Positions 2,949-43,471 of a stretch of 43,471 nt of DNA are shown one piece after another (positions within the stretch are counted from its first letter, which is position 1; each line of letters begins with the position of its first letter). The notes under the pieces were generated by a model. It was not told the DNA's origin, searched no databases, and worked only from the letters and a program-made list of their open reading frames with translations. Made by a program: the position numbers and the translations under genes. This DNA comes from an uncultured Clostridia bacterium (GTDB lineage: Bacteria > Bacillota > Clostridia > Christensenellales > UBA1242), in the NCBI GenBank assembly GCA_947630075.1, contig CANRGF010000003.1, positions 1-43,471 on the forward strand, given 5' to 3'.

Positions 2949-3941
2949 TTAAAACAATTTATCTGTGTCGTCTATTGAGAATTTGCTATTGCGTGAACTT
3001 AAAACTTGTTGAGATTTTTCTTTGCCCTTTTCTAATTCTTTTTCTTGGGTTTGTTTGACATATTTTTTAACTTCGTTTTCTAATTGACTTAAAAAATATT
3101 TAAACTTGTCAATCTCTTGCTGAGATTTAAAGAATGAGCATGGCGGAAGAATTTTTTTATTAAAGTAATTTGCAATAACTCCCCGCAAAAATTCATAAAT
3201 TTCCTCTAAGCAATGCTTATAGGTATCTTCACTTTTTTCCTTAATTAAAAATTTAAAGCATTCTATTTGTCTCTCAATGCTGAATTCTTGGAAATCTTCT
3301 GTGGAATCAATTTCTTGATTCTCTTTTTTTGCGTTTCTATCATTGACATGATTTATTGGCTTGTATTTTGGGTTTAAAATGACCTGCCCAGTTGAAATGT
3401 CGATATATCCCTTTATCCTCTCTATTGGCAAAGTGTAATAATCTTTGTTTTTCACTAAATCTCTGCTATCGGCATCAAGAATCATAATTTGCTTTTGATT
3501 TCTATGTTGCCTATTGAATAATTCATATAAAATTTCGTTATCTGATAAATCAATTAATGCATAAGAAGTGTGGGCGATGTCTTTTGCTGGGCTATAACAT
3601 CTTAAGCCCTTTTCCATTATTGCTTCTGCGCTCGATGTGGCATGAATGCGATAATTTTTATCTTTTAAAACTTCCAAAATTTGTTTTATAAATTGCGGAC
3701 TATAATTTTCTTTTATCTCTTTTGTGGTTTCGGGGACATATTCTTCAACTTCTTGTTCTTTAAAAGTTAAAAAATTTGCAAATTTTGTTAGAATTTCACT
3801 ATTTCGTCTTGCCAAAAAGAGAATATCCCTTTCGTTATAATTTTCTTCATACTCCTTATCTAAATTTTTTATAAATTCATCCATTTGCTTGGCGGAGATG
3901 TTAAATTTTCCGCACTCTTTTTTTAATTTGATAATCTTCAT
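2949..3941 (-). CDS. hypothetical protein with a possible ADP-ribosyltransferase-like central domain
   Basis: IHATSSAEAIMEKGL...HTS...LP...IKGYID...LNPKY. Start at ATG 3941, 6 nt after TTGACA-17-TATAAT. Confidence 0.4.
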   Translation of the reverse strand: MKIIKLKKECGKFNISAKQMDEFIKNLDKEYEENYNERDILFLARRNSEILTKFANFLTFKEQEVEEYVPETTKEIKENYSPQFIKQILEVLKDKNYRIHATSSAEAIMEKGLRCYSPAKDIAHTSYALIDLSDNEILYELFNRQHRNQKQIMILDADSRDLVKNKDYYTLPIERIKGYIDISTGQVILNPKYKPINHVNDRNAKKENQEIDSTEDFQEFSIERQIECFKFLIKEKSEDTYKHCLEEIYEFLRGVIANYFNKKILPPCSFFKSQQEIDKFKYFLSQLENEVKKYVKQTQEKELEKGKEKSQQVLSSRNSKFSIDDTDKLF

Positions 3942-4042
3942 ATTTGAATTATAATAAAAACTCATGAAAATGTCAAAGTTTTATTGGTTTTCTAGTTAAA
4001 AATCATTTTGATTTTCATTTGTTTTCTGCTATAATTTGATTT

Positions 4043-5161
4043 ATGAATATTGAAAACATTGGTGATGAATTATCTAAATTGGTGGATAAGTTTGAGCTCA
4101 CAAAATCTTGCTTAAATTTGGATGTGGAGCAGCAAAAATTATCCTCTCTTTTAAAAGAGCGCGAAAGCCTAACCTTCTGGAACAATTTGGATTATGCCAT
4201 GCAGACGAACAAAGAGATTAAAGCCATTCAAGATTTGTTTGAAGAGGTGAATTCGCTGCAAGCGAGTTTGCAATCGCTTATCGACACGGTTAAAGGGTTA
4301 GAAGAAAGCCCAGATATTGAAATGCTAAACCTCGCCCTAACTGAAATGCTAGATTTAAAAGATAAAGTTGACGAGTTAAATGTGCGCACTCTTTTAGACG
4401 AAAAATATGATAACAATGATGCAATTCTCACAATTCACTCGGGAGCGGGTGGCACTGAGGCTCAAGATTGGGTGGTGATGCTTGCTAGAATGTATAAGAT
4501 GTTTGCTTCGAAATATGGCTTTGACTATTCTGTGGTGGACAAAGTTGACGGCAACGATGCCGGGTTAAAAACCATCGTAATTTGGATTAAAGGCGATTAT
4601 GCCTATGGCAAACTTAAAGGAGAGATGGGCGTGCATAGATTGGTGCGCATCAGTCCGTTTGACAGCAACAAACGCCGCCACACGAGTTTTGCTTCGGTTG
4701 AAGTTGTGCCATCTATCAGCCAAGGCTCATCTGTGAAAATTAATAACGAAGATTTGAAGATAGACACATATCGCAGTTCGGGTGCGGGCGGGCAAAATGT
4801 AAATAAAGTGGAAACTGCCGTGCGCATCACTCATATCCCAACTGGCATTGTGGTAACCTGCCAAAATGAGCGTAGCCAACTGCAAAACCGTGAAAACGCA
4901 ATGAAAATTTTAACTAGCAAACTTGTGGCACTTGAAGAAGAAAAACGCCGCCAAAATCTAAACGAAATCAAGGGCGATTTAAAGCGCATTGAGTGGGGAA
5001 GCCAAATAAGGAGTTATGTTTTCCAGCCATACACAATGGTGAAAGACCACCGCACGGATTATGAAACTAGCGATGTGCAGGCGGTGATGGACGGAGAATT
5101 AAATCCGTTTATCAATGAATATCTTAGAAAATCACACTCGCAGGCTTCAAATGAGCAATAG
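4043..5161 (+). CDS. prfB: peptide chain release factor 2 (no internal frameshift)
   Basis: [13 protein letters not shown] tripeptide (RISPFD), GGQ motif, WGSQIRSYV. Confidence 0.97.
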
Positions 5162-14850: not shown

Positions 14851-15577
14851 TAAAGATAGGTTTAACCACCACATGACGCTTTTCACCTTCGCCCGTGGAT
14901 TCTGTGGTTACATCTTCACGGTCTTGCAAGGTGGTGTGAATGATGCGCCTTTCATAAGCGTTCATTGGGTCAAGGTGAATGTTTCGCTCAATTTTAATTG
15001 CCTGCTCTGCGGTTTTATTTGCCAAATCCACCAAACTTTGATTGCGGTTCGCTTTATAGCCGTTTATATCCAAATATAAACGCACAGGGCCTTCGCTTCT
15101 AAGTTTTATGCCACTGAGCAAAAGTTGAAGTGCTTGCAAATTTTCGCCGTGATATCCTATAAGTTTGCCCAAATTTTCACCTTTAATTGAAAATGTGATT
15201 TCGTTTTCCCCGGCAGTGCAATCCGCTGTGGCAGATTTATCCACCAACTGTGCCAAACCGAGCAAAAATTCAACGCCGCGCTTTTCAAGCCTAGAAGTGT
15301 CCACCACACGCTTTGGTTTAACCGGCGCACTAGCGAGAGCGGTTTTTTCTTCCACAATCTCCTCTGCTTTTTGCTCTGGCTCTGCGGTTGGCTCTAATTT
15401 TTCCTCTGGCTTTGCTTCTGGGGTTTCTTCTCCCAAAACAAGTTCAACTTTCGCCTTTTTAAATAACCCGCCTTCTTCAATCACTTTAACCTGCACTTCT
15501 TCGCGCGTGAGCCCGCACTCTAAAAGCCCATTTTGAATTGCTAATTCCACATTTTTGCCTGTTGCTTCCAATCTCAT
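14843..15577 (-). CDS. jag: Jag/KhpB (SpoIIIJ-associated RNA-binding protein; Jag_N, KH, R3H)
   Basis: EATGKNVELAI, LIGYHGENLQALQ, PMNAYERRIIH, T.S.GEG..RHVVV. Confidence 0.95.
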   Translation of the reverse strand: MRLEATGKNVELAIQNGLLECGLTREEVQVKVIEEGGLFKKAKVELVLGEETPEAKPEEKLEPTAEPEQKAEEIVEEKTALASAPVKPKRVVDTSRLEKRGVEFLLGLAQLVDKSATADCTAGENEITFSIKGENLGKLIGYHGENLQALQLLLSGIKLRSEGPVRLYLDINGYKANRNQSLVDLANKTAEQAIKIERNIHLDPMNAYERRIIHTTLQDREDVTTESTGEGEKRHVVVKPIFKK

Positions 15578-26526: not shown

Positions 26527-27417
26527 ATGAAAGCAGATGATGTTGAAGAGAGCTTGAGAAAGCGTTTTAAAAAGGAGTTGTTTTCCCCTTTTTGCAAGGC
26601 AATTAATAAATATGATTTAATTCAACCCAACGATAAAATTGCAGTGTGTATTTCTGGTGGGAAGGATAGTTTTTTGCTTGCCAAACTTTTCCAAGAATTA
26701 AAGCGTAGGCGCAATTTTATGGAAAGCAAAGAAGAAAACTTAAAAACCTCAGCAAATGACGAGTTAGACCATAATGGGAAAAATAAAGAAAACAGGAGTT
26801 TTGAACTCGTGTTTTTGGTGATGGACCCCGGATATTCAAAAACTCATCGCAAGCAAATTGAAGATAACGCTAAATTATTAAACATTCCTATCAAAATTTT
26901 TAAATCGACCATTTTTGAAAATGTGGAAAACATTGAAAAATCTCCGTGCTATATTTGTGCGCGTATGAGGCGCGGATATTTGTATAGCGAAGCAAAAAAA
27001 TTAGGCTGCAACAAAATTGCGCTCGGACATCATTATGACGACGTGATTGAAACTATTTTGATGGGAGTTATTTTTAGCGGACAATTCCAAACCATGATGC
27101 CAAAACTTAAAAGCACCAATTTTGAGGGAATGGAATTAATTAGGCCAATGTATTTAATTAGAGAGAAAGATATTTTGGCTTGGAAAAAATATAACAACTT
27201 AAATTTTTTGCAATGTGCTTGCAAATTCACAGAGAAAAATAAAGATGTTGAAAACAATTCAATGAGGCTAAAAATTAAAAATTTGATAGCCGATTTGGCA
27301 AAAGAAAACCCTCTTATTGAGGGCAACATCTTTAAGAGTGTGGAGAATGTGAACCTTTCCACAATCATTTCATATAAAGATAAATTTGGTGAGCATAATT
27401 TTTTGGATAATTATTAA
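26527..27417 (+). CDS. ttcA: tRNA 2-thiocytidine biosynthesis TtcA-family protein
   Basis: PP-loop SGGKDS, SPCYICARMRRG, KIALGHH.DD, LIRP, CAC. Confidence 0.88.
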   Translation: MKADDVEESLRKRFKKELFSPFCKAINKYDLIQPNDKIAVCISGGKDSFLLAKLFQELKRRRNFMESKEENLKTSANDELDHNGKNKENRSFELVFLVMDPGYSKTHRKQIEDNAKLLNIPIKIFKSTIFENVENIEKSPCYICARMRRGYLYSEAKKLGCNKIALGHHYDDVIETILMGVIFSGQFQTMMPKLKSTNFEGMELIRPMYLIREKDILAWKKYNNLNFLQCACKFTEKNKDVENNSMRLKIKNLIADLAKENPLIEGNIFKSVENVNLSTIISYKDKFGEHNFLDNY

Positions 27418-28916
27418 TCTGTCTTGCGCTCGCCCACTTTTATTATTTTTTCACCTTTTAGTTTGCACACAGGGCAAATCACTTCTTTTTGTTCGTCCAA
27501 TTCAAACACTTCGCCACAGAGCGTGCATTTATATTGAAGCATTTTAACTGCTTTTTGAGTTTTGCCTGCCAAATCTTTAGAGCGATTTACAAAAGAAGTG
27601 TGAAGAAGAGCCTTTGCTCTTTCGCTTGCAAAGCCTTCCAAAAATTCGTCATACAGTGCCATAATTTGCGGATTTTTGTGAGCTGCCCGCACCTTTAATT
27701 GTTTGTCCCTTTCATAGAGCGAAGCAATGCGCTTTTCTTGATAGGTTTTTTCTTCTCCAATATGTTTAGGTTGCCCTCCTCCGCCAATGCATCCGCCTGG
27801 ACACGCCATAACTTCAACAAAATCGAATTTCTCGCCCTGCTTAATGCGTTCTATGAGTTTGCGAGCGTTGGCAAGGCCGGACACAACTGCCAATTTCAAC
27901 TTTTGATTTGCAATTTCAATTTCTGCCGTTTTAATTTCATTAAGCCCGCGCACCTCTTGAAAGTTTAAAAGCAGGCTTGAAGGAGTTTTTTTTGTGAGAT
28001 AAGAATAAGCAGTGCGCACAGAAGCCTCCATCACTCCGCCAGAGTTTCCAAAAATCACTCCCGCACCAGACGATTTGCCCAAAAACTTATCAAATTCACT
28101 GTCTGGCAAACTCTTTAAGTCTATCCCCTTTTCTTTCGCCCATTTTGCAAGTTCCACCGTGGTGATGCAAAAATCGAAATCTCGCATTGGCAAATTATTA
28201 AACTTTGCAGAAGCGTTAAACTCTTCCCTTCTTATTTCAAACTTTTTTGCCACACAAGGAGTGATTGTTACATTAACAATTTTGCTTGGGTCTATGCCAA
28301 GTTTGTTTGCAAAATAAGTTTTTATCACTGCACCAAACATAGATATTGGGCTTTTGCAAGAAGACAAATTGTCTTTCATCTCGGGATAAAATGTTTCTAA
28401 AAATTTCACCCACGATGGGCAACAACTTGTGAACATAGGAAGATGTTTTCCGCTCTTTATTCTTTCCACAAGTTCTGCCGCTTCTTCGCATATCGTTAAG
28501 TCTGCACCAAAGTTTGTGTCCAACACATAATTAAAGCCAAGTGAGCGCAACAAACTAACCATTTTGCCTTCAACGAACGAGCCTGCTGGCAAGCCAAATT
28601 CATCACCTAAACCAACTCTAATTGAAGGAGCGGTGGACACCACAAACACCTTGCTCTTATCCCCCAAAAGAGCCTCCACTTGACGATATTCATCTTTGCC
28701 CACAAGAGCACCCACAGGGCATTCTTTGATGCACTGACCACAATTTACGCACACGCTCTTGCCCGTTTTCATTAAATCATAATGATTGTTTACGCTCACA
28801 AAATTTGAACAGAGGGCAGCGCACTTTCCACACTTCACACACTTATTTTCTATCCTTTCAAGCGAAGGATTATCCTTTTCCACAGCAACGCGAATGCTTT
28901 GACTTAGATGATTCAT
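27414..28916 (-). CDS. monomeric [FeFe] hydrogenase with 2x[4Fe-4S] N-terminal domain and C-terminal rubredoxin-like domain
   Basis: CVKCGKC / CVNCGQCIKECP; H-cluster motifs TSCCPSW, TPCVAKKFE, EVMACPGGCIGGGGQ; C-terminal CTLC...CPVC. Confidence 0.92.
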   Translation of the reverse strand: MNHLSQSIRVAVEKDNPSLERIENKCVKCGKCAALCSNFVSVNNHYDLMKTGKSVCVNCGQCIKECPVGALVGKDEYRQVEALLGDKSKVFVVSTAPSIRVGLGDEFGLPAGSFVEGKMVSLLRSLGFNYVLDTNFGADLTICEEAAELVERIKSGKHLPMFTSCCPSWVKFLETFYPEMKDNLSSCKSPISMFGAVIKTYFANKLGIDPSKIVNVTITPCVAKKFEIRREEFNASAKFNNLPMRDFDFCITTVELAKWAKEKGIDLKSLPDSEFDKFLGKSSGAGVIFGNSGGVMEASVRTAYSYLTKKTPSSLLLNFQEVRGLNEIKTAEIEIANQKLKLAVVSGLANARKLIERIKQGEKFDFVEVMACPGGCIGGGGQPKHIGEEKTYQEKRIASLYERDKQLKVRAAHKNPQIMALYDEFLEGFASERAKALLHTSFVNRSKDLAGKTQKAVKMLQYKCTLCGEVFELDEQKEVICPVCKLKGEKIIKVGERKTD

Positions 28917-29039
28917 TATTACCTCTTTTGTGTTTTTTTGATTATAAAAAACTTGGCCGAGTTTTGTCAAGAATAATGCCTAATTTAATTATTCTAAACT
29001 TGACAAACTCAACTCAATGTTATAAAATAAAAAAGTTAA

Positions 29040-29754: not shown

Positions 29755-30162
29755 ATGGAAATTACTTCACGCGGAAGATATGCAATGCTGATTATGGAAG
29801 ACATTGCCTTAAAAGAGGGTTTTGTTTCCATAAGCGAAATTTCCACGAAACACGGCATCTCAACTAAATATTTAGAAAAAATTATGACTATGCTTGTGAA
29901 GGCAAATCTTGTGAAAAGTGCGCGCGGCTCACTTGGCGGATACGCTCTAAGCAAACCTGCAAACCAAATCACAATAAAAGAAATTTTGGACGCCACCGGC
30001 GATGGCGCAAAAATTGTGGATTGCATTAGTACTGGCTGCTCGAACAAAGAAAATTGCCACACCTATGCAATTTGGAATACCTTGAAAGATTTGATTGAAA
30101 ATTATCTATCAGGCATAAGCCTTTTAGATTTAATTAAAAAATCTCAAACAAAAAAGGATTGA
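29755..30162 (+). CDS. Rrf2-family regulator (IscR-like, 3 Cys)
   Basis: ITSRGRYA, IS.KYLE.I, S.RG..GGY.L, C..C..C, W. Confidence 0.92.
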   Translation: MEITSRGRYAMLIMEDIALKEGFVSISEISTKHGISTKYLEKIMTMLVKANLVKSARGSLGGYALSKPANQITIKEILDATGDGAKIVDCISTGCSNKENCHTYAIWNTLKDLIENYLSGISLLDLIKKSQTKKD

Positions 30163-30302
30163 CTTTTTAATATAATAGTTTTCAACAAGTGAAAACTTGG
30201 TAAGTAGGTTTTGCCCACTTTTTATTTTGAAGAAATTAAATAAAGATTAATTTTGTGGTTTAATAAAAATATAATTGTCAAAGATTTTCATAGGAGGCAA
30301 AA

Positions 30303-30515
30303 ATGAAAAATGAAATCACCACAAAAGATTTAATGGCTCTAAATGAAATGATGACCTTTGAGAATTGGATGGCAACAAAAATGAAATTTTGCTCACAAGC
30401 CGTAACTGAAAAACCATTAAAAACAATGTTTACAGACATGGCACAAAAGCATTGCGAAAACCATTCTAAACTGCTTGCGTATTTAAAGGCGAACGCGAGC
30501 GAAGGGGGCAAGTGA
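30303..30515 (+). CDS. small spore coat-associated protein (CotF-like helical pair)
   Basis: E....KM......LK..F...AQKH.....LL.YL; SD AGGAGG; coupled to a Coat F gene. Confidence 0.6.
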   Translation: MKNEITTKDLMALNEMMTFENWMATKMKFCSQAVTEKPLKTMFTDMAQKHCENHSKLLAYLKANASEGGK

Positions 30516-30802
30516 TGGAATTCAACACCCAAAACACTTTGCAAGACGCATTGATTGCTCACAAATATCTAATCAATATGTATTGCCAATATGGAATTGA
30601 AACATCGAATGAAACTCTTCGCACACTTTTTGAAGAGAACCAAAAAGTTGCCAGCGCACATGATTTGAAACTTTTCAAAATCATGAACGACAAGGGGTTT
30701 TACCCTAAATCTCCCGCCGCCGCAAAAGATGTGAAGCAAGCACTCAAAATGCACACCCAAATGCAGCAAGACTTGGAAAAGAATTTAAAGACAACAAAAT
30801 AA
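30512..30802 (+). CDS. Coat F domain spore coat protein
   Basis: D.L...K.....Y.....E.SN..LR..F......H...F..M..KGFY. Confidence 0.75.
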   Translation: MMEFNTQNTLQDALIAHKYLINMYCQYGIETSNETLRTLFEENQKVASAHDLKLFKIMNDKGFYPKSPAAAKDVKQALKMHTQMQQDLEKNLKTTK

Positions 30803-31214
30803 GGCGCAACGCGCCTTATTTTAAATTTCTTTTGTAAATTAGTGTTAATTCACAAAAATAAAAAGTAAAGAAAAATAATAATAAACATTAAAATAATATT
30901 TTATTAATTTTTTAATTAATTTTTTAAAATTTATTTAATAAAAATTAAATTTTTCATGAATTTTTATCACTAAAAATAATTATACAATAATTATAAATTA
31001 ATTAATAATTAATTATTAATCCGTTTTTTATATAGTTTTTATTTTATTTTATAATTATTAAAACATTTTAATTTAATTTTTAAATTTTCTTTTAAATTCT
31101 GATGAATTTTAATATATTTTTGGCAAATTTTTAATAAATTTATGATTTTTTAAATTTTTTATTTATTTTTTTATTTTATTTGGTTATTTATTGGTTTTGT
31201 GATATAATTTGAAC

Positions 31215-31901
31215 ATGAAAGTTAGAATTTATATTTATGTGTTTTTTGGGTTGCTTTGTGCTCTTGGAATAGGGTTATATTTAGCAAATCCAAATTTGGC
31301 AATTTTTCAAGTGTTTATGAGTTTTGGTGCAAGCCTTATCGGTGCAATATTTATTGCTGTTGTGCTCGAATCAATCTCTTCAAGTAAGCAGAGAAAAAAT
31401 GTGCTTTCCATTCAAAAACAAATGTTGGCTTCAAGCAAGGAAGCCTTTAAGTCATTTTATCTATGGCTTGGCAATTATTTGGTGAGAAAATTTTCAATCA
31501 CTTCATTTGATTATTCAAACTTTAGTTCTGGTGAAGAGTTTTATAAAAAACTTTTTGAAGAATGTGCCCGCTCTGAAAAAGAAGTGAACTTGGAAAATAT
31601 TGTTGAGTTTGTGTCAAACAAAGCCTCTCAACTCTCCATGCCGATTGACAGCCTTAATCGCACCATCAATGAAGAGATTGCCACGCTTATCACAAATGCG
31701 GTGGTTGACGAAGATGATGTGAAGTTCTTTAACGATTTAAAGAGCTTGGTTTTAGACATTCAGTCGAGCGAAAGTTTTGACGAACTTTCAACCGATGTGG
31801 TTGCTCTTTTAGAAAAAATTAATTCAAAGCAATCGCTAAAACTTGAGCTAAATGAATTGCTGACTGATAGGCTTAAAAGAAAATTTTCAACGGGCGAATA
31901 A
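31215..31901 (+). CDS. hypothetical membrane protein (2 N-terminal TM helices)
   Basis: Hydrophobic N-terminus, helical soluble C-terminus; ATG 6 nt after TGaTATAAT. Confidence 0.7.
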   Translation: MKVRIYIYVFFGLLCALGIGLYLANPNLAIFQVFMSFGASLIGAIFIAVVLESISSSKQRKNVLSIQKQMLASSKEAFKSFYLWLGNYLVRKFSITSFDYSNFSSGEEFYKKLFEECARSEKEVNLENIVEFVSNKASQLSMPIDSLNRTINEEIATLITNAVVDEDDVKFFNDLKSLVLDIQSSESFDELSTDVVALLEKINSKQSLKLELNELLTDRLKRKFSTGE

Positions 31902-31972
31902 AACCGCCCTTTTTTATCTAAATAGATTTGAAAAATTTTCATTATGTGATAGAATATTCAAAAGGATTTGAT

Positions 31973-33286
31973 ATGGAATTTGAAACGATTGTGGCTTTGG
32001 CAACGCCTGCTGGAAATAACGGCGTGGCAGTGATAAGAATTAGCGGGCCAAAAGCCAAGACTATTGCTCAAAAGTTGATTAAAGAAAAATTAAATTTTGA
32101 GCCTAGAAAGATGTATTTAAAAAAGATTGATTTAAAAAGTTTCACAGACAACGCTTTGATTGTGTTTTTTGAAAAGCCTTTTAGTTTTACAGGTGAAGAT
32201 GTGGTGGAAGTGCAAGCTCATGGCGGATATTTTCTTGCCCAAACAATTATTGATTGCATAATTTCTCTTGGTGCGCGCTTGGCAACACCCGGAGAATTTT
32301 CAAAGCGCGCCTTTTTGAATGGAAAAATTTCGTTAGATGAGGCGGAAGGAATTGTGGATATGATTAACGCCGAAACGCAAATGCAGGCAAAGGCGAGCAG
32401 CGAATTATTACAGGGCAAACTTAAAGACAACATCCAAGCAAAACAAACTGTTTTAACGGACATCTTGGCAGAAGTTGAGGCAAGGCTTGACTATCCTGAA
32501 TATGAATTTTCAAACTTAGAAACTGCAAACTTTTTAGAGAAAATAAAGCATCTTGAAGGCGAACTGACCGCCCTTATTTTAGATAGCCAAAAGGGGCTGA
32601 TAATTAAAAACGGCGTGAAAATTGCCATTGTGGGCGCACCAAATGTGGGCAAATCTAGCCTACTTAACGCACTAACAAAAAGCGAAAAAGCGATTGTAAC
32701 CGACATCGCGGGAACAACGCGAGATGTGATTGAAGCGGAATATCTATTTAACGGAATTGTGTTTAGATTATTTGACACGGCGGGTATTCACAGCAGCAAA
32801 GACAAAGTGGAAAAAATTGGCATTTCACGTGCAATTAAAACCATTGATGAATGCGACCTTGTGTTGCGCCTCAGCGAGCCAAATGCTCCATGCAAGGTGA
32901 AAACAACAAAACCACATATTGACGTGTTAAACAAAATTGATTTAACGAAAGGAAAAGAAACAAAAACTAAAGGCTCAGACACAATTTCAATTTCTGCCAA
33001 AACGGGTGAAAAAGTGGAAGATTTAAAGCAGTTAATTTTTGATAAAACAATCAAATCTAATATAGACCAAAATAAATTTTATCTCACAAACACTCGCCAT
33101 ATTGAGTGCATTAAATCTGCATTGGCGCATTTAAAAAAGGCAATCAAAATTTTCAACTCCACCACTATGGACATTATTTCTGCTGAACTAAAAGCGGCGT
33201 GGAGCGATTTGGGAGAAGTTACCGGCACAACGGCAAACGAGGATATTATAGACAAAATTTTTTCAAAGTTTTGCTTGGGCAAATAG
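31973..33286 (+). CDS. mnmE: tRNA modification GTPase MnmE/TrmE
   Basis: TIVALATP, SFTGEDVVE..HGG, GEFSKRAFLNGK, GAPNVGKSS, GTTRD, DTAG, NKID, FCLGK. Confidence 0.97.
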   Translation: MEFETIVALATPAGNNGVAVIRISGPKAKTIAQKLIKEKLNFEPRKMYLKKIDLKSFTDNALIVFFEKPFSFTGEDVVEVQAHGGYFLAQTIIDCIISLGARLATPGEFSKRAFLNGKISLDEAEGIVDMINAETQMQAKASSELLQGKLKDNIQAKQTVLTDILAEVEARLDYPEYEFSNLETANFLEKIKHLEGELTALILDSQKGLIIKNGVKIAIVGAPNVGKSSLLNALTKSEKAIVTDIAGTTRDVIEAEYLFNGIVFRLFDTAGIHSSKDKVEKIGISRAIKTIDECDLVLRLSEPNAPCKVKTTKPHIDVLNKIDLTKGKETKTKGSDTISISAKTGEKVEDLKQLIFDKTIKSNIDQNKFYLTNTRHIECIKSALAHLKKAIKIFNSTTMDIISAELKAAWSDLGEVTGTTANEDIIDKIFSKFCLGK

Positions 33287-36570: not shown

Positions 36571-37830
36571 ATGAAAAAGTTTTGGGTGTGGGCAATATTT
36601 ATTTTAATATTTTCGTTCCCAATGGCTTTTTTCGGCTGTGCGAAGGATAAAAATTCAAACGCAAAAATTCAGCTGGATATGACCAACGCACGATGGAATT
36701 ATAATGGCGGCTTTGAAACGGAAAACGCTGGTGAAACAAATTTTGAAGTTAAGGTTTTGGGGTTGCCTAAGGAAATTGATGTAACCTATGACGGAGTAAC
36801 TTCCAATCGTTACCCTAATGAATATTGGACGATTTATCCAGAAAGTGGCAGAAGTGAATATTACACCGTTACTGCGCATTTGCAATACGATGAGGAAAAA
36901 TATGAGCTTGTGAACGACAATTTGCCCCGCACATTAAATTGGAAAATATACGACACTTTATATCTTGAAAAAGAAGCGGACAAAATTTCAAATTGTTATA
37001 GTGAATGGTATGGGAAATTTTCAAGAGAATCAATAGACTATTTGCATTTTGTGAACTATATTCCAGAGGGAGTGGACGCCACAAGTTATATGTGGGATAT
37101 GCAAGATGGATATGGTGAAAATCATGTTTATTTTGGGTTGGACGCAAACTTATTTAAAAGTTTTAAACTACCAAAAGATAGCTCATATATGTTCGCATAT
37201 CTCTATAATCTAAAAGGCATCACAGGTTTGGAATATGTGGATTTCTCTTGTGCTGAAGATCTGTCTTATATGTTTTTTAACTGTGGTGTTGAGAGTGGCG
37301 AGAAATTAGAAATCGTTTTCCCAGACAACTTGGATTTGAGCTCCGCCACAAATATGAGCCAAATGTTTTCAAATGTGGGAGGCGCGGGTGAATTAGAGCT
37401 TGAATTGGGCAACTCGTTTAACTGCTCAAATGTGAGCAACATGGCAAATATGTTTTATAACTGCGGCAAAAGCTCTAGTAAATTTCATTTAAGGCTAGGA
37501 GAAAAGTTTGACACTTCTAATGTGAAGGATATGAGCCAGATGTTTTATAATTGCGGAGCCGCTTGCCCAGACTTTTATTTAGATATGGGCTTAGGCTTTA
37601 AGGTTGACAATGTGCAAAGCATGATTCAAATGTTTTTGAATTGTGGGAAAAGCTCTAGCAATGTGAATGATTGGAAAATTGACCTTTTAGGAAAGCTTTC
37701 CGCTGAGTGTGATTTGAGTTGGGTTTTCTATAAATTCGATAAAGATTTGCGTGTTTATGTGGACGATGCTCAAACCTACGAGCTCTTATCCGCAAAAGGA
37801 TACACTCATCCACAGATAGTGATGAAATAA
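36571..37830 (+). CDS. surface lipoprotein with BspA/DUF285-like repeats
   Basis: Signal peptide with lipobox AFFG-C; about five ~30-aa repeats of (F)D.S.V..M..MF.NCG. Confidence 0.8.
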   Translation: MKKFWVWAIFILIFSFPMAFFGCAKDKNSNAKIQLDMTNARWNYNGGFETENAGETNFEVKVLGLPKEIDVTYDGVTSNRYPNEYWTIYPESGRSEYYTVTAHLQYDEEKYELVNDNLPRTLNWKIYDTLYLEKEADKISNCYSEWYGKFSRESIDYLHFVNYIPEGVDATSYMWDMQDGYGENHVYFGLDANLFKSFKLPKDSSYMFAYLYNLKGITGLEYVDFSCAEDLSYMFFNCGVESGEKLEIVFPDNLDLSSATNMSQMFSNVGGAGELELELGNSFNCSNVSNMANMFYNCGKSSSKFHLRLGEKFDTSNVKDMSQMFYNCGAACPDFYLDMGLGFKVDNVQSMIQMFLNCGKSSSNVNDWKIDLLGKLSAECDLSWVFYKFDKDLRVYVDDAQTYELLSAKGYTHPQIVMK

Positions 37831-37857
37831 AGCAGCCGGTTGGCTGCTTTTTTTTTG
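37830..37857. terminator. intrinsic terminator between convergent genes
   Basis: AAGCAGCC ggtt GGCTGCTT followed by a T-run. Confidence 0.8.
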
Positions 37858-37877
37858 CTTAAATTTATTGTGAAGGG

Positions 37878-39950
37878 CTAAACCGAATGAGTGTCAGTTT
37901 TTAGCTCTTCTTCTTGCGAGGGGGTGGCGGAACATTCTTGCTCTTGTTCCTTGCTCTCTTGTTGGATGAAAGAGGTCAATTTTTTGCTATAGCACACATA
38001 TAACCCGTGTAATGCGCGCGTGCATGCCACATAAAGATTTTGCCTATCAAGAGGGGTGTGATAGTTTGATTCGTCCGCATTTGGAATGATAACTCTATCA
38101 TACTCTAAACCTTTGCTTAAATATGTGGTGGTGATGATGTTGTTTGAAGTGAGAAGAGCGTCATCATTTTCATTTTTGATAAATGTGAATGAAGGCAAGA
38201 GTTTTGCCAATTTAAACGCTTCATCAAAACTTTTCACAACCACAGCTATCTTCTCGCCCTTGTGCTCTTCTGCAACAGCATTTGCCAATGACACAAAATC
38301 TTCATCTGTTTTGCACTTTGAAATTGATGGTTTACTCCCTTTTCGCACAAAGCGAGTGTTTGCTGTTTCCCCCACAATTTTTTGAGCAAATTCAATAATG
38401 TCGTTTGTTGAGCGATAGCTAACTGTTAAATTGTCCACTTGAACATTAGGATAAAGCCTTTGCAAAATTTCTAGGTTGGATTGCGAAGATAAGATGTTTT
38501 GATTATAATCCCCAGTGAGCGTCATCACCGCGCTTGGATATATCTTTTTGATTAGCGCAATGCTAAATGGATCGTAGTCCTGCATTTCATCAATAAATAT
38601 GTGCTTAATGAAATGATTTGGTGCAACCCCCATGAGATTGGCGTTGATATAAGCATAAATTGGTGCGTCTTCATAACCCATAGGCTTTTCTGCAAAATGC
38701 AAATTATGCTGAGCATAAAGATTGGAGAGTATCTCTTTTGCTGAAATGCTATTTTCCATCAAGGCTAACATTTTTGCCTTGCAGCGTTCAATCGCCTTTC
38801 CAGACTGTTGCTTATACCTTGCAGATAAGGCGGCAGAAATTAGCGCTTCAATGTTTTGCTTGATGTTTGGCATGGTGGGTCTATTCAAAAGATAAAGTAA
38901 AGTTTTTGGCATATCCAAACCCACTTTTTTAAACGTTTCATACACTGGAGAAACAATGTCATAATTTTTCAAAAATTCATTCACTTCATCATAGAATTTT
39001 GTGGAAAATTTTGTGTTGATTTCTGCCATGCGAACTTCGTCATAAAACTTGCTATCCACCATGGACAATTTTGTGCCACAAGTTTTAGGGGCGAGACCTG
39101 CATCTTTCAATACCTGCATTATGGTGCAAGAGCGCACATTTTCTTCGCCTAACTCTGGCAGTAAGTCGCTTATATAGGTGCTAAATAATTTGCTAGGAGA
39201 AATCACTAAAACATTTTTGCTTGTGATGTTTCCTTTGTTTGCATATAAAATGTATGAAATTCTATGCATGGCAACGGACGTTTTGCCTGAACCTGCAATG
39301 CCGTTTATGATGACGGTTTGCATAGGAGGTTTTCTTATGATTTCGTTTTGTTCCTCTTGAATGCTCTCCACTATGTTGGTCATGTGCGAAGATGTGTTTT
39401 GGCTCAAAATCTCTTGCAAGATGTTATCGTCAATCTTCGTGTTTGTGTCGATATAAGAAACGATTTTGTTTGGTTGCAGTCTAAATTGCCTTTTCAAAAG
39501 CAATTCAACGGGAATTTTGCCCACAGGTGCGGTATAATATGTGTTGCCAAGCGAGGAGAAATATAATAGCGATGCGATTGGAGAACGCCAATCTAATAGA
39601 TAGGTGGAATCGTCTTTAAAAAGATTCTTTAAGCCGATATAAAAAGTTTCAGGCTCTGAGCCCCTTTCTTTAATTTGAATTTTGGCAAAGAAAGGTTTTG
39701 GCATGATTCGCTGAAACATGTTTTTATTTTGTTGATATAAGTAATTTGAACTATCGCGATTGTAGATTTCTCCCTTCACTTCCACAAATTCAACAAGGTC
39801 TAATTTCTCAGTGGCGGCATAGTGCATGCTCTCACGAATGTCGGACTCGTTGCTGGCGATTTTCTTATCTAGTTCGTCAATTTCTTCTTTTATTTTGCCT
39901 TGAATAAATTCAAGGTGTTTTTGCTCTTCGTCAAGGATAGATTTTTCCAT
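37878..39950 (-). CDS. helD: HelD-like SF1 helicase / RNA polymerase recycling ATPase
   Basis: PFFAKI, YIG, DWRSPIASL, IV.SIQ.EQ..IIR, G.AGSGKT..AMHR, DE.QD, GD.NQ, SYRST, KGLEYD, YVACTRA. Confidence 0.8.
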   Translation of the reverse strand: MEKSILDEEQKHLEFIQGKIKEEIDELDKKIASNESDIRESMHYAATEKLDLVEFVEVKGEIYNRDSSNYLYQQNKNMFQRIMPKPFFAKIQIKERGSEPETFYIGLKNLFKDDSTYLLDWRSPIASLLYFSSLGNTYYTAPVGKIPVELLLKRQFRLQPNKIVSYIDTNTKIDDNILQEILSQNTSSHMTNIVESIQEEQNEIIRKPPMQTVIINGIAGSGKTSVAMHRISYILYANKGNITSKNVLVISPSKLFSTYISDLLPELGEENVRSCTIMQVLKDAGLAPKTCGTKLSMVDSKFYDEVRMAEINTKFSTKFYDEVNEFLKNYDIVSPVYETFKKVGLDMPKTLLYLLNRPTMPNIKQNIEALISAALSARYKQQSGKAIERCKAKMLALMENSISAKEILSNLYAQHNLHFAEKPMGYEDAPIYAYINANLMGVAPNHFIKHIFIDEMQDYDPFSIALIKKIYPSAVMTLTGDYNQNILSSQSNLEILQRLYPNVQVDNLTVSYRSTNDIIEFAQKIVGETANTRFVRKGSKPSISKCKTDEDFVSLANAVAEEHKGEKIAVVVKSFDEAFKLAKLLPSFTFIKNENDDALLTSNNIITTTYLSKGLEYDRVIIPNADESNYHTPLDRQNLYVACTRALHGLYVCYSKKLTSFIQQESKEQEQECSATPSQEEELKTDTHSV

Positions 39951-40047
39951 TTCTCCTCCAAAAGTTACTATAGTATAGCACATAAAAAGCAATAAAACAA
40001 TAGTAAAATTAAAAATTCAGTTCATTTTTTATGGTTTTTTGTTGAAT

Positions 40048-41778
40048 TTAGCTGTGCCAACACGAAAAATTTCTAAGCGAAAATGAATATAATTTGTGAT
40101 TTTCGCTTAAAATTTGCATAATTTCATCTTTAATTTTTGCTTTTTCATCTGTTGGTGCAGAAGCTGAATAAAAATAATTTAATCCTTCATTTTGCGAGGC
40201 TATTTTGCAGTTTTTTGTGAAAGTGAAATCGTTGATTTCAAACACATCTACCAAATCTAAATTTGCTTTGATGCCATTAAGGGTTTGCGTTAGGTCGTCC
40301 TCCGTTTCTTCTGGGAAATTGAAAAGCAGGCTTACGCTCGTTTTTATGCCATATTTTTTGCTTAAGCGCAAGATGTTTAAGGCGTGGTCAACTGTTATTC
40401 CTTTGTTCATTTTGTTGAGTAAATTTTGGCTAAAACTTTCTAAGCCCAAAAACATCATTTTCAACCCGTGCTCGCTAAAATGTTTTATTGTTTCTTCACT
40501 ATCGAGCGCGGGGTCGAAGCGGAATGTGCCCTTCCAATTAATTTTCACGCCACGCTCATCAAGCCCTTGCAAAATGTTTTTCACTTCGCCAGGAATTAGG
40601 CAATCATCCACAAATTCGATGTTGTGCACTCCTTGTGAAGATAAATTGCAAATTTTTTCCACAATGTTTTTGCAACTAAATGAAAAATTATCCCTATTAT
40701 GTCTATCGCAAAACAGGCATTTTTTATAATAACACTCTCGCCTTATTGACACGGGCGCAATCTTAAACACGGCAACATATTTTTCAAAATCAATTTGAGG
40801 ATATTCCGTTGTGGGTGTGCCCATTCCGTTTAGTTGAGCGATTGGCACAACGCTTGAAAAGAACGAGGTGAAAAAACTTGGATTATAGTTTGCTTCGAAT
40901 AATGTTGAGTTGTCAACTAAAATTGGCTTAATGTGGAGCACTTCATCTAAAATTTTTGCAAAAATGGTTGCGCTCATCAGTTTGTTGAAATTGTTCACAA
41001 CTAAATATATGTTTGCCCTTTTGCCGTTATACTTTTTTATTATGGCTTCAATCTGCGAAAGTTTTGAAAGATAGAATGGATATAAAATTGAAGATTTATG
41101 ATTTGAAATCGTGCTTTCAATGGCAAGAGAATTTTTGGGGTCGCATAAAGTTAACTCGCCAAAAGAGAAACGGAAAACGCCGAATTTCTTTTGCTGAATG
41201 GCTCGGCAAATTTGTGTGTAGCGATAAAAACTATCCACATCTTTTTCACTTTTTGCGTGCTTATATAATTCAATTTTTTCAGGCGAATATATTTGGCGAT
41301 TGAAGTCCAAATTAAAATCAAAATAAAAAGTGTGCTTATTTTTTGCCGCTAGCGCCTGCCAAACTTGAATGGTTGCCTCGTTGAAATATTTGGGTTTATT
41401 GAAAGGAATATCTAAAACCAAGTTTATGCAATCTTCCTCTTTTTTTGTCTTGGCAGGCTTTGCCACAGCGATGATGTCGCTTAAAGCAAACCAAGTTTTT
41501 TCGCAAGCGGGCTGATTATCCCCCTGCAAGCAAACTTTATTATTTTTATTATCAATCTCCACCACTCTATGAATGACAAAGTTTTCCACCTTATTGCCTA
41601 TGGCAACGGCTATGTCCCCCACTCTTAGCGAAAATTCATTTGAGATTTCCACATCTTGCCCGCTGAAAAAAGTGGGCACCATGCTAGAACCAAAAATCTT
41701 CACATTTTTGATTTTGCCTTGCCTAATTTTATCTATAAAAAATTTTCTTGAAAGGGTTTTATTTATCATCTTTTGCAC
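40048..41778 (-). CDS. fusion protein: N-terminal S24/S26-type peptidase plus C-terminal radical SAM domain (B12-binding-family-like)
   Basis: N-terminal GSSMVPTF...GDI...VIHRV...QGDN; C-terminal RRECYYKKCLFC, FVDD, GLESFSQ.LL.KMNKG, FNFP.ET..D. Alternative start ATG 41769. Confidence 0.8.
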   Translation of the reverse strand: MQKMINKTLSRKFFIDKIRQGKIKNVKIFGSSMVPTFFSGQDVEISNEFSLRVGDIAVAIGNKVENFVIHRVVEIDNKNNKVCLQGDNQPACEKTWFALSDIIAVAKPAKTKKEEDCINLVLDIPFNKPKYFNEATIQVWQALAAKNKHTFYFDFNLDFNRQIYSPEKIELYKHAKSEKDVDSFYRYTQICRAIQQKKFGVFRFSFGELTLCDPKNSLAIESTISNHKSSILYPFYLSKLSQIEAIIKKYNGKRANIYLVVNNFNKLMSATIFAKILDEVLHIKPILVDNSTLFEANYNPSFFTSFFSSVVPIAQLNGMGTPTTEYPQIDFEKYVAVFKIAPVSIRRECYYKKCLFCDRHNRDNFSFSCKNIVEKICNLSSQGVHNIEFVDDCLIPGEVKNILQGLDERGVKINWKGTFRFDPALDSEETIKHFSEHGLKMMFLGLESFSQNLLNKMNKGITVDHALNILRLSKKYGIKTSVSLLFNFPEETEDDLTQTLNGIKANLDLVDVFEINDFTFTKNCKIASQNEGLNYFYSASAPTDEKAKIKDEIMQILSENHKLYSFSLRNFSCWHS

Positions 41779-42829
41779 TTTTTACACTATTATAAATAAA
41801 TTTTGCCTCTCTGCAATTTTGTTCAACAGGCAAAATAACCTTGCCATTCGTGCGGTGCTCCATGTAGGTGGACACAGCGCAGTTTGAACAAAACTTTTTA
41901 TATTTGCAGTTGTAACACTCGCCAGATTTATCCTTTTCTAAATTTAGATATTGTGAAAAACTATCCCAAATTTCTTTGATTGAAAAGTCTTTAATATTTT
42001 TTTCGCTAAACTCGGCAAAATTGCACAGCCTCACTCCGCCCAAGCAGTTTATGAAAATGCTAATCCTGCCTGCACCGCAAGAATATAAGCAATCGTTATC
42101 ATTATTCATGTTTTCTCTGGTTAAGAAACTTAGCCAATTTTTTAGTTTTAGTTTTTTTATTTTGTTCATTATTGACAAATAGTCTTTGTCAGTTAGGCGG
42201 TTGGTTTGCTGACCGTTTGAAAAATCTTTGCTTGCAAGCAGGTTTAAATCAAATCTAAAAGGCACATTAAAGCCGGTGCAATAGTCATTAATCTGCTCAA
42301 ACTGTTTCCAATTCTGCTCCATGATAACTGTTTTAAGCGAAAGGGTTAGCCCAGCATCAATGAGCAGATGAATGTTTTTATTCACCACAGAAAAGCCGTC
42401 ATTAACTAAGCAAACGGACTTATAAGTAACATCGTCCACCCCATAAATGCTGATTTCAATCCTCTCGGGCGGATTTGCCTTTAAAAAGTTGATATACTTA
42501 TCTAAAAAGTAGCCGTTCGAAAAGAGGGCGATTTTCAAGCCTTTATCAAAGCAGTGCTTATAAATTTCTTTAAAATTTGGGTGAACGGTTGGCTCTCCAC
42601 CCGTGATTGTGATGGTTTCCAACCCCATTTCGCACATCTCGTCTATCATTCGCTTTGCAATATCTAGCGGAATAAACTTTATGGCGAGATTTTGATTATA
42701 ACAATGAATGCACTTAAAATTGCACGCGTTGGATATTTCAAAGGTGGCGGAGCGCAGTTTGCGATGATTGCTCAGCCGTTTATAATATTTTTTGAATAGG
42801 AAATTTTTAAGTTTTTCTTCATTTAACAT
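41759..42829 (-). CDS. radical SAM/SPASM domain peptide maturase
   Basis: CNFKCIHC, TGGEP, SNG; SPASM CGAG...G.VRLC...CYNCKYKKFCSNC...C. Start uncertain (42829 or 42838). Confidence 0.92.
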   Translation of the reverse strand: MLNEEKLKNFLFKKYYKRLSNHRKLRSATFEISNACNFKCIHCYNQNLAIKFIPLDIAKRMIDEMCEMGLETITITGGEPTVHPNFKEIYKHCFDKGLKIALFSNGYFLDKYINFLKANPPERIEISIYGVDDVTYKSVCLVNDGFSVVNKNIHLLIDAGLTLSLKTVIMEQNWKQFEQINDYCTGFNVPFRFDLNLLASKDFSNGQQTNRLTDKDYLSIMNKIKKLKLKNWLSFLTRENMNNDNDCLYSCGAGRISIFINCLGGVRLCNFAEFSEKNIKDFSIKEIWDSFSQYLNLEKDKSGECYNCKYKKFCSNCAVSTYMEHRTNGKVILPVEQNCREAKFIYNSVKSAKDDK

Positions 42830-43097
42830 AGGCAACATCCGCCTCAATTAACTGATTGATAAAATTCTTTAAATCTGCCTTGGCACGAGATTTCGAAACG
42901 TCAAAAGATTTAACCATTTCTTCTTCAATTTCTTCACTCGTTTTGCCCTGCTTTATCTTTAAAAATATGAATTTTGCCACATCTTCAAGCACTATTGCGT
43001 GCTCATAATCTATTTCATGCTTTTCATTTTCCTTAGTTAAGATAAGGCAATTTTCATATTCATCGTCCACTATGTTTGGCTTAATAAATATTTTCAA
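42819..43097 (-). CDS. PqqD-family RiPP recognition element (stand-alone RRE)
   Basis: 92 aa with L...A.FI......G.T.EEI..E....FDV....A..DL..FI.QL; SD GGAGG before TTG. Confidence 0.88.
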   Translation of the reverse strand: MKIFIKPNIVDDEYENCLILTKENEKHEIDYEHAIVLEDVAKFIFLKIKQGKTSEEIEEEMVKSFDVSKSRAKADLKNFINQLIEADVAYVK

Positions 43098-43115
43098 AAC
43101 ATCACCTCCATAAAT

Positions 43116-43150
43116 AAAAAAGTTATAATTTATGCAATTATAACTTTTTT
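43116..43150 (-). terminator. hairpin (attenuator or stabiliser) between precursor and RRE genes
   Basis: Perfect 15-bp inverted repeat AAAAAAGTTATAATT tatgc AATTATAACTTTTTT. Confidence 0.7.
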
Positions 43151-43155
43151 AAAAA

Positions 43156-43260
43156 CTAGCAATAGCAAGAGTCGTCATCACTTCCTGAAGAATTGCAGCC
43201 GCTAAAAACTGAAATCTTGCTTAGGTCAATTTTTAGCAAAACGGGAGTTGAATATTTCAT
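43156..43260 (-). CDS. putative RiPP precursor peptide, 34 aa: MKYSTPVLLKIDLSKISVFSGCNSSGSDDDSCYC
   Basis: Below the ORF-track cutoff; strong SD AAAGGAGG; YxxPxL leader motif; Cys/Ser/Asp-rich C-terminus; first gene upstream of RRE and rSAM. Confidence 0.88.
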   Translation of the reverse strand: MKYSTPVLLKIDLSKISVFSGCNSSGSDDDSCYC

Positions 43261-43304
43261 AGCGCCCTCCTTTGTAAAATTTGAAACCTATGTTTCTTAT
43301 TCTT

Positions 43305-43333
43305 ATCATAACATATAAAAATAATTTTGTCAA
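43305..43333 (-). promoter_or_regulatory. sigma-A promoter of the RiPP operon
   Basis: TTGACA-17 bp-TATGAT with extended -10 TG. Confidence 0.75.
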
Positions 43334-43471
43334 CAGATTTAAATAGAAAATTTAAAAGCAATAGATGGAGTTTCGTACGCGCGCGGGCGCACTAACCTAT
43401 TAAAAGGCAGTTTGTGGTGGAAAATCTTAACAAAAACTTAGAAATTTTCATAAAAGTGGTTAAAATCATTT

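Follow-up and report, generated by a model that had tools for sequence, protein, structure and literature searches.

What does a compact set of four genes near one end of a gut Clostridia contig make, and does it form a working biosynthetic module at all? The contig, CANRGF010000003.1 of assembly GCA_947630075.1 (an uncultured Clostridia bacterium of the Christensenellales), was analysed over its whole length of 43,471 nucleotides, referred to here as the window; it is the whole of contig C3 of a metagenome-assembled genome (MAG) of 985 kb in 117 contigs, 88% complete. An earlier note on this DNA had described, on its minus strand, a promoter, a 34-residue open reading frame (ORF) with a strong Shine-Dalgarno sequence, a hairpin, and three overlapping genes for a recognition element of peptides that are made by ribosomes and modified after translation (RiPPs), a radical S-adenosylmethionine (SAM)/SPASM enzyme and a peptidase-radical SAM fusion. 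All of these elements lie at 40048-43333 (-), and the identities given to the stand-alone RiPP recognition element (RRE), the radical SAM/SPASM enzyme and the fusion hold by Pfam and NCBIfam matches. From this gene content we infer, as the note did, two radical SAM steps and a built-in leader removal.

We favour, with moderate confidence, the reading that the locus is a genuine module for the biosynthesis of a RiPP, maintained by vertical descent, and a variant architecture of the RRE-dependent radical SAM pathways, which are a productive source of new peptide chemistry. The elements of the operon are as follows.

43305..43333 (-), sigma-70-type promoter TTGACA-17-TATGAT with a TG extension, 11 of 12 positions matched
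43266..43271 (-), Shine-Dalgarno sequence AGGAGG, six bases ahead of the precursor ATG at 43260
43156..43260 (-), precursor gene of 34 amino acids, MKYSTPVLLKIDLSKISVFSGCNSSGSDDDSCYC, called from its ORF and Shine-Dalgarno sequence
43115..43151 (-), hairpin between the precursor and RRE genes, with a stem of 16 bp and a U run behind it, called from its fold energy
42819..43097 (-), stand-alone PqqD-family RRE of 92 amino acids, with a TTG start after GGAGGTGA (PF05402)
41759..42847 (-), radical SAM/SPASM maturase, an ORF of 362 amino acids with a probable start at ATG 42829 that gives 356 amino acids (Pfam)
40048..41778 (-), fusion protein, an ORF of 576 amino acids with a probable start at ATG 41769, an N-terminal S24/S26 peptidase match and a Radical_SAM match in the C-terminal half

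Gene order and precursor of the operon

The order precursor, hairpin, RRE, SPASM enzyme, fusion recurs at loci L004, L005 and L006 (the same as L008), whose enzymes are 42-66% identical to those of the window, and at L003, a 95%-identical locus. It is kept in all four lineages that have upstream DNA (window/L003, L004, L005 and L006=L008). Across the three further lineages, identity to the window is 66, 61 and 50% for the SPASM enzyme and 48, 47 and 42% for the fusion, and the RRE is 51 and 46% identical; all four ORFs are intact in the window and in L003-L006. Because the same gene order recurs in three divergent lineages and in L003, the arrangement is evidently more than chance. The three enzyme and RRE genes are closely packed and coupled in translation, with overlaps of 11 nucleotides at both the RRE/SPASM and the SPASM/fusion junction when ATG 42829 and ATG 41769 are used, at which the database proteins P0168 (SPASM) and P0001 (fusion) begin, or of 29 and 20 nucleotides with the longest ORFs.

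A small ORF stands directly upstream of the RRE gene in each of these four lineages, and a profile search of the protein collection returned four peptides, one of them new (P0279), a fifth precursor with the same motif. The motif common to the five lineages is KYxxPx[LV]...F-x-G-C-[NS]-[ST]-x-x-[SN]-D-D-x-S-C-Y. Eleven columns are invariant in the four aligned precursors (K2, Y3, P6, F19, G21, C22, D28, D29, S31, C32 and Y33). In all five, F-x-G closes the presumed leader, and the core G-C-[NS]-[ST]-x-x-[SN]-D-D-x-S-C-Y would comprise 13 residues; the C-terminus varies, ending at Y or adding C, YGDDGED or YETDDD after it. In the four lineages with DNA, the segment from K-Y to S-C-Y is 32 codons long and free of indels; 11 synonymous-only and 7 amino-acid-changing codons distinguish the window precursor from that of L005. 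Because the motif is conserved in five lineages, with no indels and many synonymous-only codon differences, the precursor is a real gene, and it matched no Pfam or NCBIfam family. The claim of a YxxPxL-type leader with a Cys-rich core, made in the earlier note from this one peptide, extends to the homologous loci, where a conserved precursor is present.

The strong promoter of the precursor gene at 43305..43333 was the top of 20 promoter-like sites in 37500-43471, a number not above chance (shuffle mean 18.5). Sites with a 17-nucleotide spacer and a TG extension occur at the equivalent position in L004 (10/12) and L005 (9/12); the scan of the L006 coding strand flagged no site there, and TTGACA-17-TTTAAT can be read by eye. 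The hairpin of the window folds with -16.9 kcal/mol over 68 nucleotides (z-score -4.29, 0/200 shuffles as stable) and is not flagged by the terminator scan at 43115..43151. A stem-loop with a U run occupies the precursor-RRE junction in 4/4 lineages with upstream DNA, each time with an unrelated sequence; the z-scores were -2.54 in L004, -5.68 in L005 and -1.5 over 87 nucleotides in L006, the last two being flagged as terminator-like. The element is likely a leaky terminator or attenuator. Leaky terminators that raise the ratio of precursor to enzymes are common in RiPP operons, and here most transcripts would stop at the hairpin while some read on, leaving the precursor in excess over the enzymes.

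The RRE matched PqqD (PF05402) with 37.2 bits at residues 32-87 (cut-off 23.4, E 3.7e-9), and its top NCBIfam match was the lasso PqqD chaperone, at 24.5 bits and below the cut-off of 70. We propose that it binds the leader at its KYxxPx[LV] stretch and thereby presents the peptide to the enzymes. The motif K-Y-x-x-P-x-[LV], present in 5/5 precursors, equals the YxxPxL that a review describes in lasso leaders of actinobacteria, which their RRE binds (PMC6784204). A predicted complex of the RRE with the precursor scored 0.58, which is weak support, against 0.02 for the best of three controls; runs agreed in at least 87% of contacts and the partner reached a predicted local distance difference test score (pLDDT) of at least 57. 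The mark used for such predictions was reached by 58/80 solved complexes and 2/110 mismatched pairs, and scores at 0.60 or under held only 7 of the 80 solved complexes and both passing mismatches. Structures of similar RRE-leader complexes exist, and the pass may therefore reflect memorised structures or likeness. The resemblance to lasso systems extends to the YxxPx[LV] leader and the best curated match of the RRE, whereas the conserved block has no B2 cysteine protease and no Asn-synthetase-like cyclase, and the maturases are radical SAM enzymes.

Two radical SAM enzymes and a peptidase domain

The SPASM enzyme matched Radical_SAM at 1.4e-20, and the SPASM model PF13186 is annotated on 9/17 members of its family in precomputed data. 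Numbered from ATG 42829, the CX3CX2C cysteines C36, C40 and C43 are invariant in 17/17 members, as are seven cysteines of the SPASM region (C251, C269, C305, C308, C314, C317 and C339); this ten-cysteine pattern is the one expected for two auxiliary clusters, which the enzyme would then carry. It reached no curated NCBIfam cut-off, and SkfB is its nearest solved chain (1.1e-9). We propose that it forms one or two intramolecular cross-links in the 13-residue core. As to their nature, our guess is Cys cross-links, favoured only because the two core cysteines are invariant; thioethers from Cys to the invariant Asp, Ser or Tyr positions would be the likeliest.

The fusion protein divides into three parts.

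41440..41778 (-), N-terminal S26B (Sec11/SipW-type) signal-peptidase-like domain, residues 1-110 from ATG 41769 (profiles)
40750..41439 (-), middle Rossmann-like domain of truncated B12-binding type, residues ~111-340 (AlphaFold2 and Foldseek)
40048..40749 (-), radical SAM core with invariant CX4CX2C (C346/C351/C354), residues ~341-573 (Radical_SAM)

An AlphaFold2 model of the whole protein, built on a 16-row alignment, had a pLDDT of 87.9 and a predicted TM-score of 0.83, with residues 1-110 forming a beta domain. In the family of 16 fusion proteins, PF00717 was matched by 15/16, TIGR02228 by 15/16 (best 2.3e-13), SipW by 8/16 and the maturation protease of nickel superoxide dismutase (NiSOD) by 5/16; the single member that matched neither PF00717 nor TIGR02228 has no N-terminus. 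Searched against the PDB, the domain profile found human SEC11A (2.3e-6) and SEC11C (1.3e-5). The GSSMxP, VHR and GDN motifs align with SGSMEP, VHR and GDNN of SEC11A, and in entry 9rjb, an SGAM form, Ala sits in the column of the second Ser of the family. Among the 16 sequences, conservation is at least 90% at each of G27, S28, S29, M30, P32, H67, G83, D84 and N85. The protein has no hydrophobic segment (maximum Kyte-Doolittle 19-residue mean 1.26 over the whole protein and 0.81 over the first 60 residues), and for this reason the domain is judged to be soluble, with no membrane anchor. To judge from these motifs, it is a soluble Sec11/SipW-type (S26B) signal-peptidase homologue with the Ser/His/Asp motifs. 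It differs from Sec11 and SipW in lacking the anchor, in being joined to a radical SAM enzyme, and in its presumed cut site between G and C of F-x-G-C, which is atypical. A precedent is the NiSOD maturation protease, which belongs to S26, is soluble and acts in the cytoplasm, where it trims an N-terminal propeptide. In the pathway that we favour, the Ser-His peptidase domain would strip off the leader inside the cytoplasm, with the cut probably following the invariant F-x-G.

The C-terminal half of the fusion matched Radical_SAM at 4.1e-13 (residues 352-500). C346, C351 and C354 are invariant in 16/16 members, and the nearest uncharacterised relatives have the same motif as CYYxKCxFC. Foldseek placed the half close to MiaB (1.3e-11), MgmA (8.3e-11), OxsB (8.8e-11), TsrM (1.6e-10) and AprD4 (2.0e-10), with CysS and TokK also found; identity of the fusion to any solved chain was at most 15%, and the modelled fold does not discriminate class-B from MiaB-type families. 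A protein atlas returned class-B radical SAM clusters only (score 0.90). With OxsB and AprD4 this half shares an N-terminal Rossmann-type domain ahead of a radical SAM barrel, and with OxsB, which is also a weak sequence match, the spacing CX4CX2C; it differs in that its B12-type domain is truncated, negative for PF02310 and joined to an S26B peptidase domain. OxsB is reported to be a cobalamin-dependent, non-methylating radical SAM enzyme with CX4CX2C (PMC9204698).

Could this half be an ordinary cobalamin-dependent C-methyltransferase, so that the product would be a methylated thioether peptide? Its best curated matches are all of class B (PhpK 70 bits, the methyl-coenzyme M reductase Gln C-methyltransferase 51 bits and the RiPP C-methyltransferase TIGR03975 46 bits), and its fold is like that of TsrM, TokK, CysS and MgmA. 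We nevertheless regard this as unlikely. PF02310 (B12-binding) is found in 0/16 family members, the B12-type domain is ~45 residues shorter than in the nearest relatives, the GGS and GxGE stretches being among those lost, every curated score is far under its cut-off, and the non-methylating AprD4 and OxsB score equally by fold; the 88%-complete genome also has no RF00174 cobalamin riboswitch, which is weak evidence. Because the B12-type domain is truncated and PF02310 is absent from all 16, cobalamin-independent chemistry appears more likely than methylation. Within the pathway that we favour, the class-B-like half would perform a second radical modification, probably without cobalamin and not as a simple methyltransferase, a view that follows from the CX4CX2C motif and the truncated domain. 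The peptidase-radical SAM protein of the earlier note has in this way gained detail: its peptidase would be of the S26B type and free of a membrane anchor, and its second radical SAM domain class-B-like, with CX4CX2C and a truncated B12-type domain.

Several results weigh against the favoured reading. The SPASM enzyme of the window scored 21.3 against PF13186, just below the cut-off of 21.5. Its top curated matches were enzymes of heme and mycofactocin biosynthesis (AhbD, 106 bits vs 500; MftC, 91.7 vs 265), and the thioether formers came lower (AlbA, 71.3 vs 850; StsB, 66.8 vs 625; SkfB, 45.7 vs 300; PapB, 40.1 vs 340); because these scores are low, thioether chemistry is a guess from the Cys-rich core. 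The window fusion fell below the cut-offs of Peptidase_S24 (21.6 vs 23.3) and TIGR02228 (35.3 vs 51.85). A fold search with a model of the isolated N-terminal domain (pLDDT 79.3) gave 0 matches at E <= 0.001; in this weak search lambda CI (TM-score 0.55/0.61), LexA, SEC11C (23% identity) and SpsB appeared at E 0.007-0.013 among Tudor/SH3-like barrels. Signal peptidases have small residues at -1 and -3 of the cut site, a rule broken at the proposed site, where the residue at -3 is an invariant Phe. The comparison of ORFs between loci found no exporter in the conserved block, and a search of sequencing runs for window DNA found 7 DNA runs and no RNA run. The operon is also dispensable, since it is missing from a 98%-complete genome of the same genus (G362) and decayed in another genome (G426).

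In a further alternative, the product is a peptide-derived cofactor or small molecule in the manner of pyrroloquinoline quinone (PQQ) or mycofactocin. The SPASM enzyme would then cross-link or decarboxylate the peptide near its D-x-x-x-Y / C-Y end, and the peptidase would excise an intracellular product. A stand-alone PqqD chaperone with a SPASM enzyme, a peptidase and a short peptide mirrors PqqA/D/E and MftA/B/C/E; MftC is the second-best curated match; Asp28, Asp29 and Tyr33, the last close to the C-terminus, are invariant; the block has no exporter; and the host genome is only ~1 Mb. The K-x-x-P-x-L...DL shape of the leader may resemble PqqA as well. We consider a cofactor very doubtful, however. 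MftC (91.7 vs 265) and PqqE (44.3 vs 381.35) are far under their cut-offs, the block has neither PqqB/C nor MftD/E/F homologues and so lacks the PqqB/C- or MftD/F-like tailoring genes, and the variable C-terminus (Y, YC, YYGDDGED or YYETDDD) argues against a chemistry that needs the carboxylate of a terminal Tyr. The two invariant cysteines would have no role, and a cofactor would be expected more widely than in 5/185,579 species genomes. The pathway also differs from those of PQQ and mycofactocin in the two invariant cysteines of its core, its variable C-terminal extension and its extreme rarity.

The RiPP module that we favour comes closest to the sactipeptide and ranthipeptide systems (AlbA, SkfB, StsB and PapB), with which it shares a Cys core, an RRE-guided SPASM enzyme with CX3CX2C and a seven-Cys region, and a small operon headed by the precursor. 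It differs from them in that the RRE is a separate protein and a second radical SAM enzyme is fused to a peptidase, and the window core, C-x9-C with DD and a following Tyr, matches 0 precursor families. The module fails the curated tests for the sactipeptide, ranthipeptide, mycofactocin, PQQ, lasso and class-B methyltransferase families. A full-text literature search found no description of a RiPP operon with a signal peptidase-radical SAM fusion, while the supplementary tables of radical SAM-RiPP atlases could list the family. With no curated cut-off reached other than that of PqqD, and no matching paper in the full-text search, the suggestion that this gene combination belongs to no described RiPP class stands. 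Two features would be new relative to described modules: a Sec11/SipW-type domain recruited as a soluble, enzyme-fused putative leader peptidase, and a class-B-like second maturase whose CX4CX2C motif and truncated B12-type domain make it a candidate for chemistry other than methylation.

The HelD paralogue downstream

One further gene follows the operon.

37878..39992 (-), HelD-type RNA polymerase recycling ATPase of 704 amino acids, probable start ATG 39950 (NF041464)

All ORFs of at least 80 amino acids within ~6 kb were compared, all against all, between the window and L003, L004, L005, L006, L007 and L008, a length cut-off above the 34-residue precursor. The only proteins common to the lineages in the same arrangement were the RRE, the SPASM enzyme, the fusion and HelD, and both outer flanks differ in every lineage. 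HelD stands directly after the fusion gene in 4/5 lineages (window/L003, L004, L005 and L006=L008). In the window it starts 55-97 nucleotides past the fusion gene, according to which start is taken, whereas the longest HelD ORF of L006=L008 overlaps the fusion stop; in L007 a UDP-galactopyranose-mutase-like gene takes its place. Its identity to the window declines alongside that of the enzymes (63, 57 and 38%). The statement of the earlier note that the operon has no transporter, immunity gene or lasso cyclase stands for exporter and cyclase, neither of which is in the conserved block; its immunity part may be wrong, given the HelD paralogue in 4/5 lineages.

The window HelD scored 390.9 bits against NF041464 (HelD_BACSU), just below the cut-off of 419 and over the N-terminal half, with HelR next at 129 bits. 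It resembles HelD and HelR in the match to HelD_BACSU and in its UvrD-type domains, and differs in falling under the 419-bit cut-off and in its place in a paralogue clade with a physical link to a RiPP operon. HelD trees were built from the loci and the family genomes, with partial or weak matches set aside (G416, G429, G421, G428, G433, G422, G410, G434, G405 and G430:C19). In an IQ-TREE phylogeny of 16 full-length HelDs, the five linked HelDs fell into one clade with G423:C5, G426 and G417 (support 100/99); in a FastTree phylogeny of 20 rows the linked clade had support 100, and the second HelD of G423 (C8) fell elsewhere, with G411:C5 (support 99). Because this second HelD falls in a different clade, the linked clade is a distinct paralogue. 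A single HelD was found in the 88%-complete genome of the window, 22/40 other family genomes have one (E <= 1e-30), and G362, of the same genus, has neither a HelD at E <= 1e-30 nor a fusion gene.

Genomes that carry clade members and no intact operon are informative about this linkage. The G423 member (52% identical) adjoins nrdD/nrdG, and no operon or fusion gene occurs anywhere in that genome. In G426:C30 (L032 1498..1746, -), an ORF of 82 amino acids is a C-terminal remnant of the fusion, 53% identical to residues 502-574 of the L006 protein; it overlaps the start of the linked-clade HelD gene, and the rest of the RiPP operon is gone. An extra short match to residues 260-275 suggests an internal deletion. 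A tblastn search with 16 cluster proteins found remnants only in G426 (L011 and L032, the same place) among 13 HelD loci, most of which have only ~1.5 kb of flank. On this evidence the operon and the HelD paralogue were inherited as one block and lost piecemeal. The operon's tie to a distinct HelD paralogue across lineages, with HelD identity down to 38%, is a further feature new relative to described modules.

The link may reflect function or only ancient adjacency: the HelD paralogue may be kept by descent, or it may shield the RNA polymerase of the producer. HelD proteins insert into the RNA polymerase secondary channel. A product that inhibits RNA polymerase, for example bound in that channel, could then be dislodged by the HelD paralogue, which would act as an immunity protein as HelR does against rifamycins. 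Several observations agree with such a role. HelD is the sole further gene besides the four operon genes common to the loci within ~6 kb, amid flanks that differ; it is directly downstream in 4/5 lineages and overlaps the fusion end in L006=L008; the linked HelDs together with G423:C5, G426 and G417 make one paralogue clade; G362 is without both the fusion gene and HelD; HelD is dispensable in the family (22/40 other genomes have one); and the operon has no other immunity gene or exporter. There is also the precedent of HelR, which is reported to protect RNA polymerase by displacing rifamycins (PMC12241128).

We nevertheless rate this role as rather improbable. G423 keeps a clade member beside nrdD/nrdG without the operon, the HelD of G426 has outlasted its operon, which is as compatible with an ordinary housekeeping role as with an orphan immunity gene, L007 has the UDP-galactopyranose-mutase-like gene in place of HelD, and HelD best matches the ordinary B. 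subtilis-type model. A minus-strand scan of the gap between the fusion and HelD genes flagged neither promoter-like nor terminator-like sites; an extended -10-like sequence TGCTATACT can be read by eye at 39972-39980 (-), 21 nucleotides before the HelD ATG at 39950 with GGAGG between, and the -35 region ahead of it is poor (TTGTTT), which explains why the scan passed it over. HelD may have its own promoter at TGCTATACT besides read-through from the operon, which would also count against an immunity role. A full-text literature search on HelD in gene clusters found no such RiPP link among the papers listed, a weak result because the search was swamped by the English word 'held'.

More improbable again is the complete proposal, namely that an RRE-guided SPASM enzyme and a peptidase-fused, cobalamin-independent, class-B-like radical SAM enzyme make RiPPs of a new class, with a product that targets bacterial RNA polymerase and HelD as its target-protection immunity. 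If HelD does confer immunity, the peptide, with uncultured gut Christensenellales as its source, would be a new ligand of RNA polymerase, and it and HelD would form the first peptide-HelD pair, a natural probe of HelD function. If HelD is merely a neighbour, the locus would still be a new RiPP family, one of many uncharacterised. In either case the favoured RiPP module is compact, with five genes and a conserved core of 13 residues, and is directly testable by co-expression.

Rarity and genomic setting

A word-indexed search of 5.8 billion proteins with the fusion gave 23 proteins at E <= 0.001 among 8000 scored, of which 16, including the window's own, form the fusion family. Fifteen members have 559-590 amino acids and one has 402, all with E <= 2e-98 and 38-50% identity; the first protein beyond them had E 1.2e-8 and aligned over the radical SAM core only. 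An exhaustive HMMER search of 1.84 billion representatives found 13 proteins at E <= 1e-30, nine of them family members or their fragments. For the SPASM enzyme, the 5.8 billion proteins held 17 close relatives (E <= 1e-103, 47-66% identity by MAFFT), followed by a drop to 34% at 1e-41. The fusion is encoded at 5 loci among 185,579 species genomes, counted at one genome per species, and a scan of Joint Genome Institute (JGI) metagenomes brought one more, L008, whose ORFs equal those of L006. At E <= 1e-20 the fusion was found in 0/400 other sampled genomes of the same order, including G362. The module is, on these searches, both conserved and rare.

A last alternative is that in this genome the operon has lost its function and persists as a decaying relic: near relatives have lost it, the fusion is absent from all 400 sampled genomes of the order, and G426 has just the 82-residue remnant. 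We give this almost no credence. None of the four ORFs is broken in the window or in L003-L006, the catalytic motifs show no variation, the changes in the precursor preserve its reading frame, and the promoter, Shine-Dalgarno sequence and hairpin are intact.

The nearest public loci come from MAGs of uncultured gut Clostridia and Christensenellales (rabbit-derived bins, Christensenella sp. UBA5893 and Candidatus Onthoplasma), and the 7 gut metagenome DNA runs that contain window DNA belong to 2 studies. The other genes of the window are housekeeping genes by Pfam annotation, among them MnmE, MnmG, IspH, Fe-hydrogenase, Rrf2 and NADAR. We also considered a mobile island and rejected it: the surroundings are housekeeping genes, no integrase was seen, and no simple insertion boundary could be defined. 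An anti-phage defence role was set aside as well, since PADLOC gave generic superfamily matches only (pVip at 61 bits for the SPASM enzyme, GajB-type UvrD at <= 54 bits for HelD, and none for the RRE or the fusion).

Upstream of the operon, L003 carries a tRNA-Arg ~870 nucleotides from the precursor gene. Between this tRNA and the promoter, at 3927..4256 (-), lies an ORF of 109 amino acids divergent from the operon, which has no Pfam match and is not conserved in L004-L006; its position falls past the contig end in the window. Synteny between L003 and G362 stops just after a GtrA-like gene, and in L003 the tRNA-Arg and then the RiPP operon come next. The GtrA-like protein has 211 amino acids in L003 and corresponds to the start of an 849-residue ORF in G362 (L031 2298..4847, G362:C1).

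The four proteins of the HMMER search that lie outside the fusion family (P0026-P0029) are giants of 1982-2331 amino acids that match the fusion only in the radical SAM core. Each has 3-4 separate stretches similar to this class-B-like core (E 1e-35 to 1e-47), and they look like tandem multi-radical SAM enzymes.

Elsewhere in the window, segments 3001-4000, 14001-15000 and 30001-32000 have a G+C content of 0.29-0.30 vs ~0.37 in the remainder; a 230-residue ORF at 31209..31901, within the last of these, has no Pfam match. The [FeFe]-hydrogenase large subunit at 27414..28970 (-) has a fused small-subunit domain and a weak C-terminal rubredoxin-like match (PF21349, 22.7 bits vs a cut-off of 26.5). 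Convergent with HelD, a DUF285 protein of 419 amino acids is encoded at 36571..37830 (+). In G362:C1, open frames of 5045 and 7314 amino acids, at ~309-314 kb and ~380-386 kb, contain many DUF285-like repeats.

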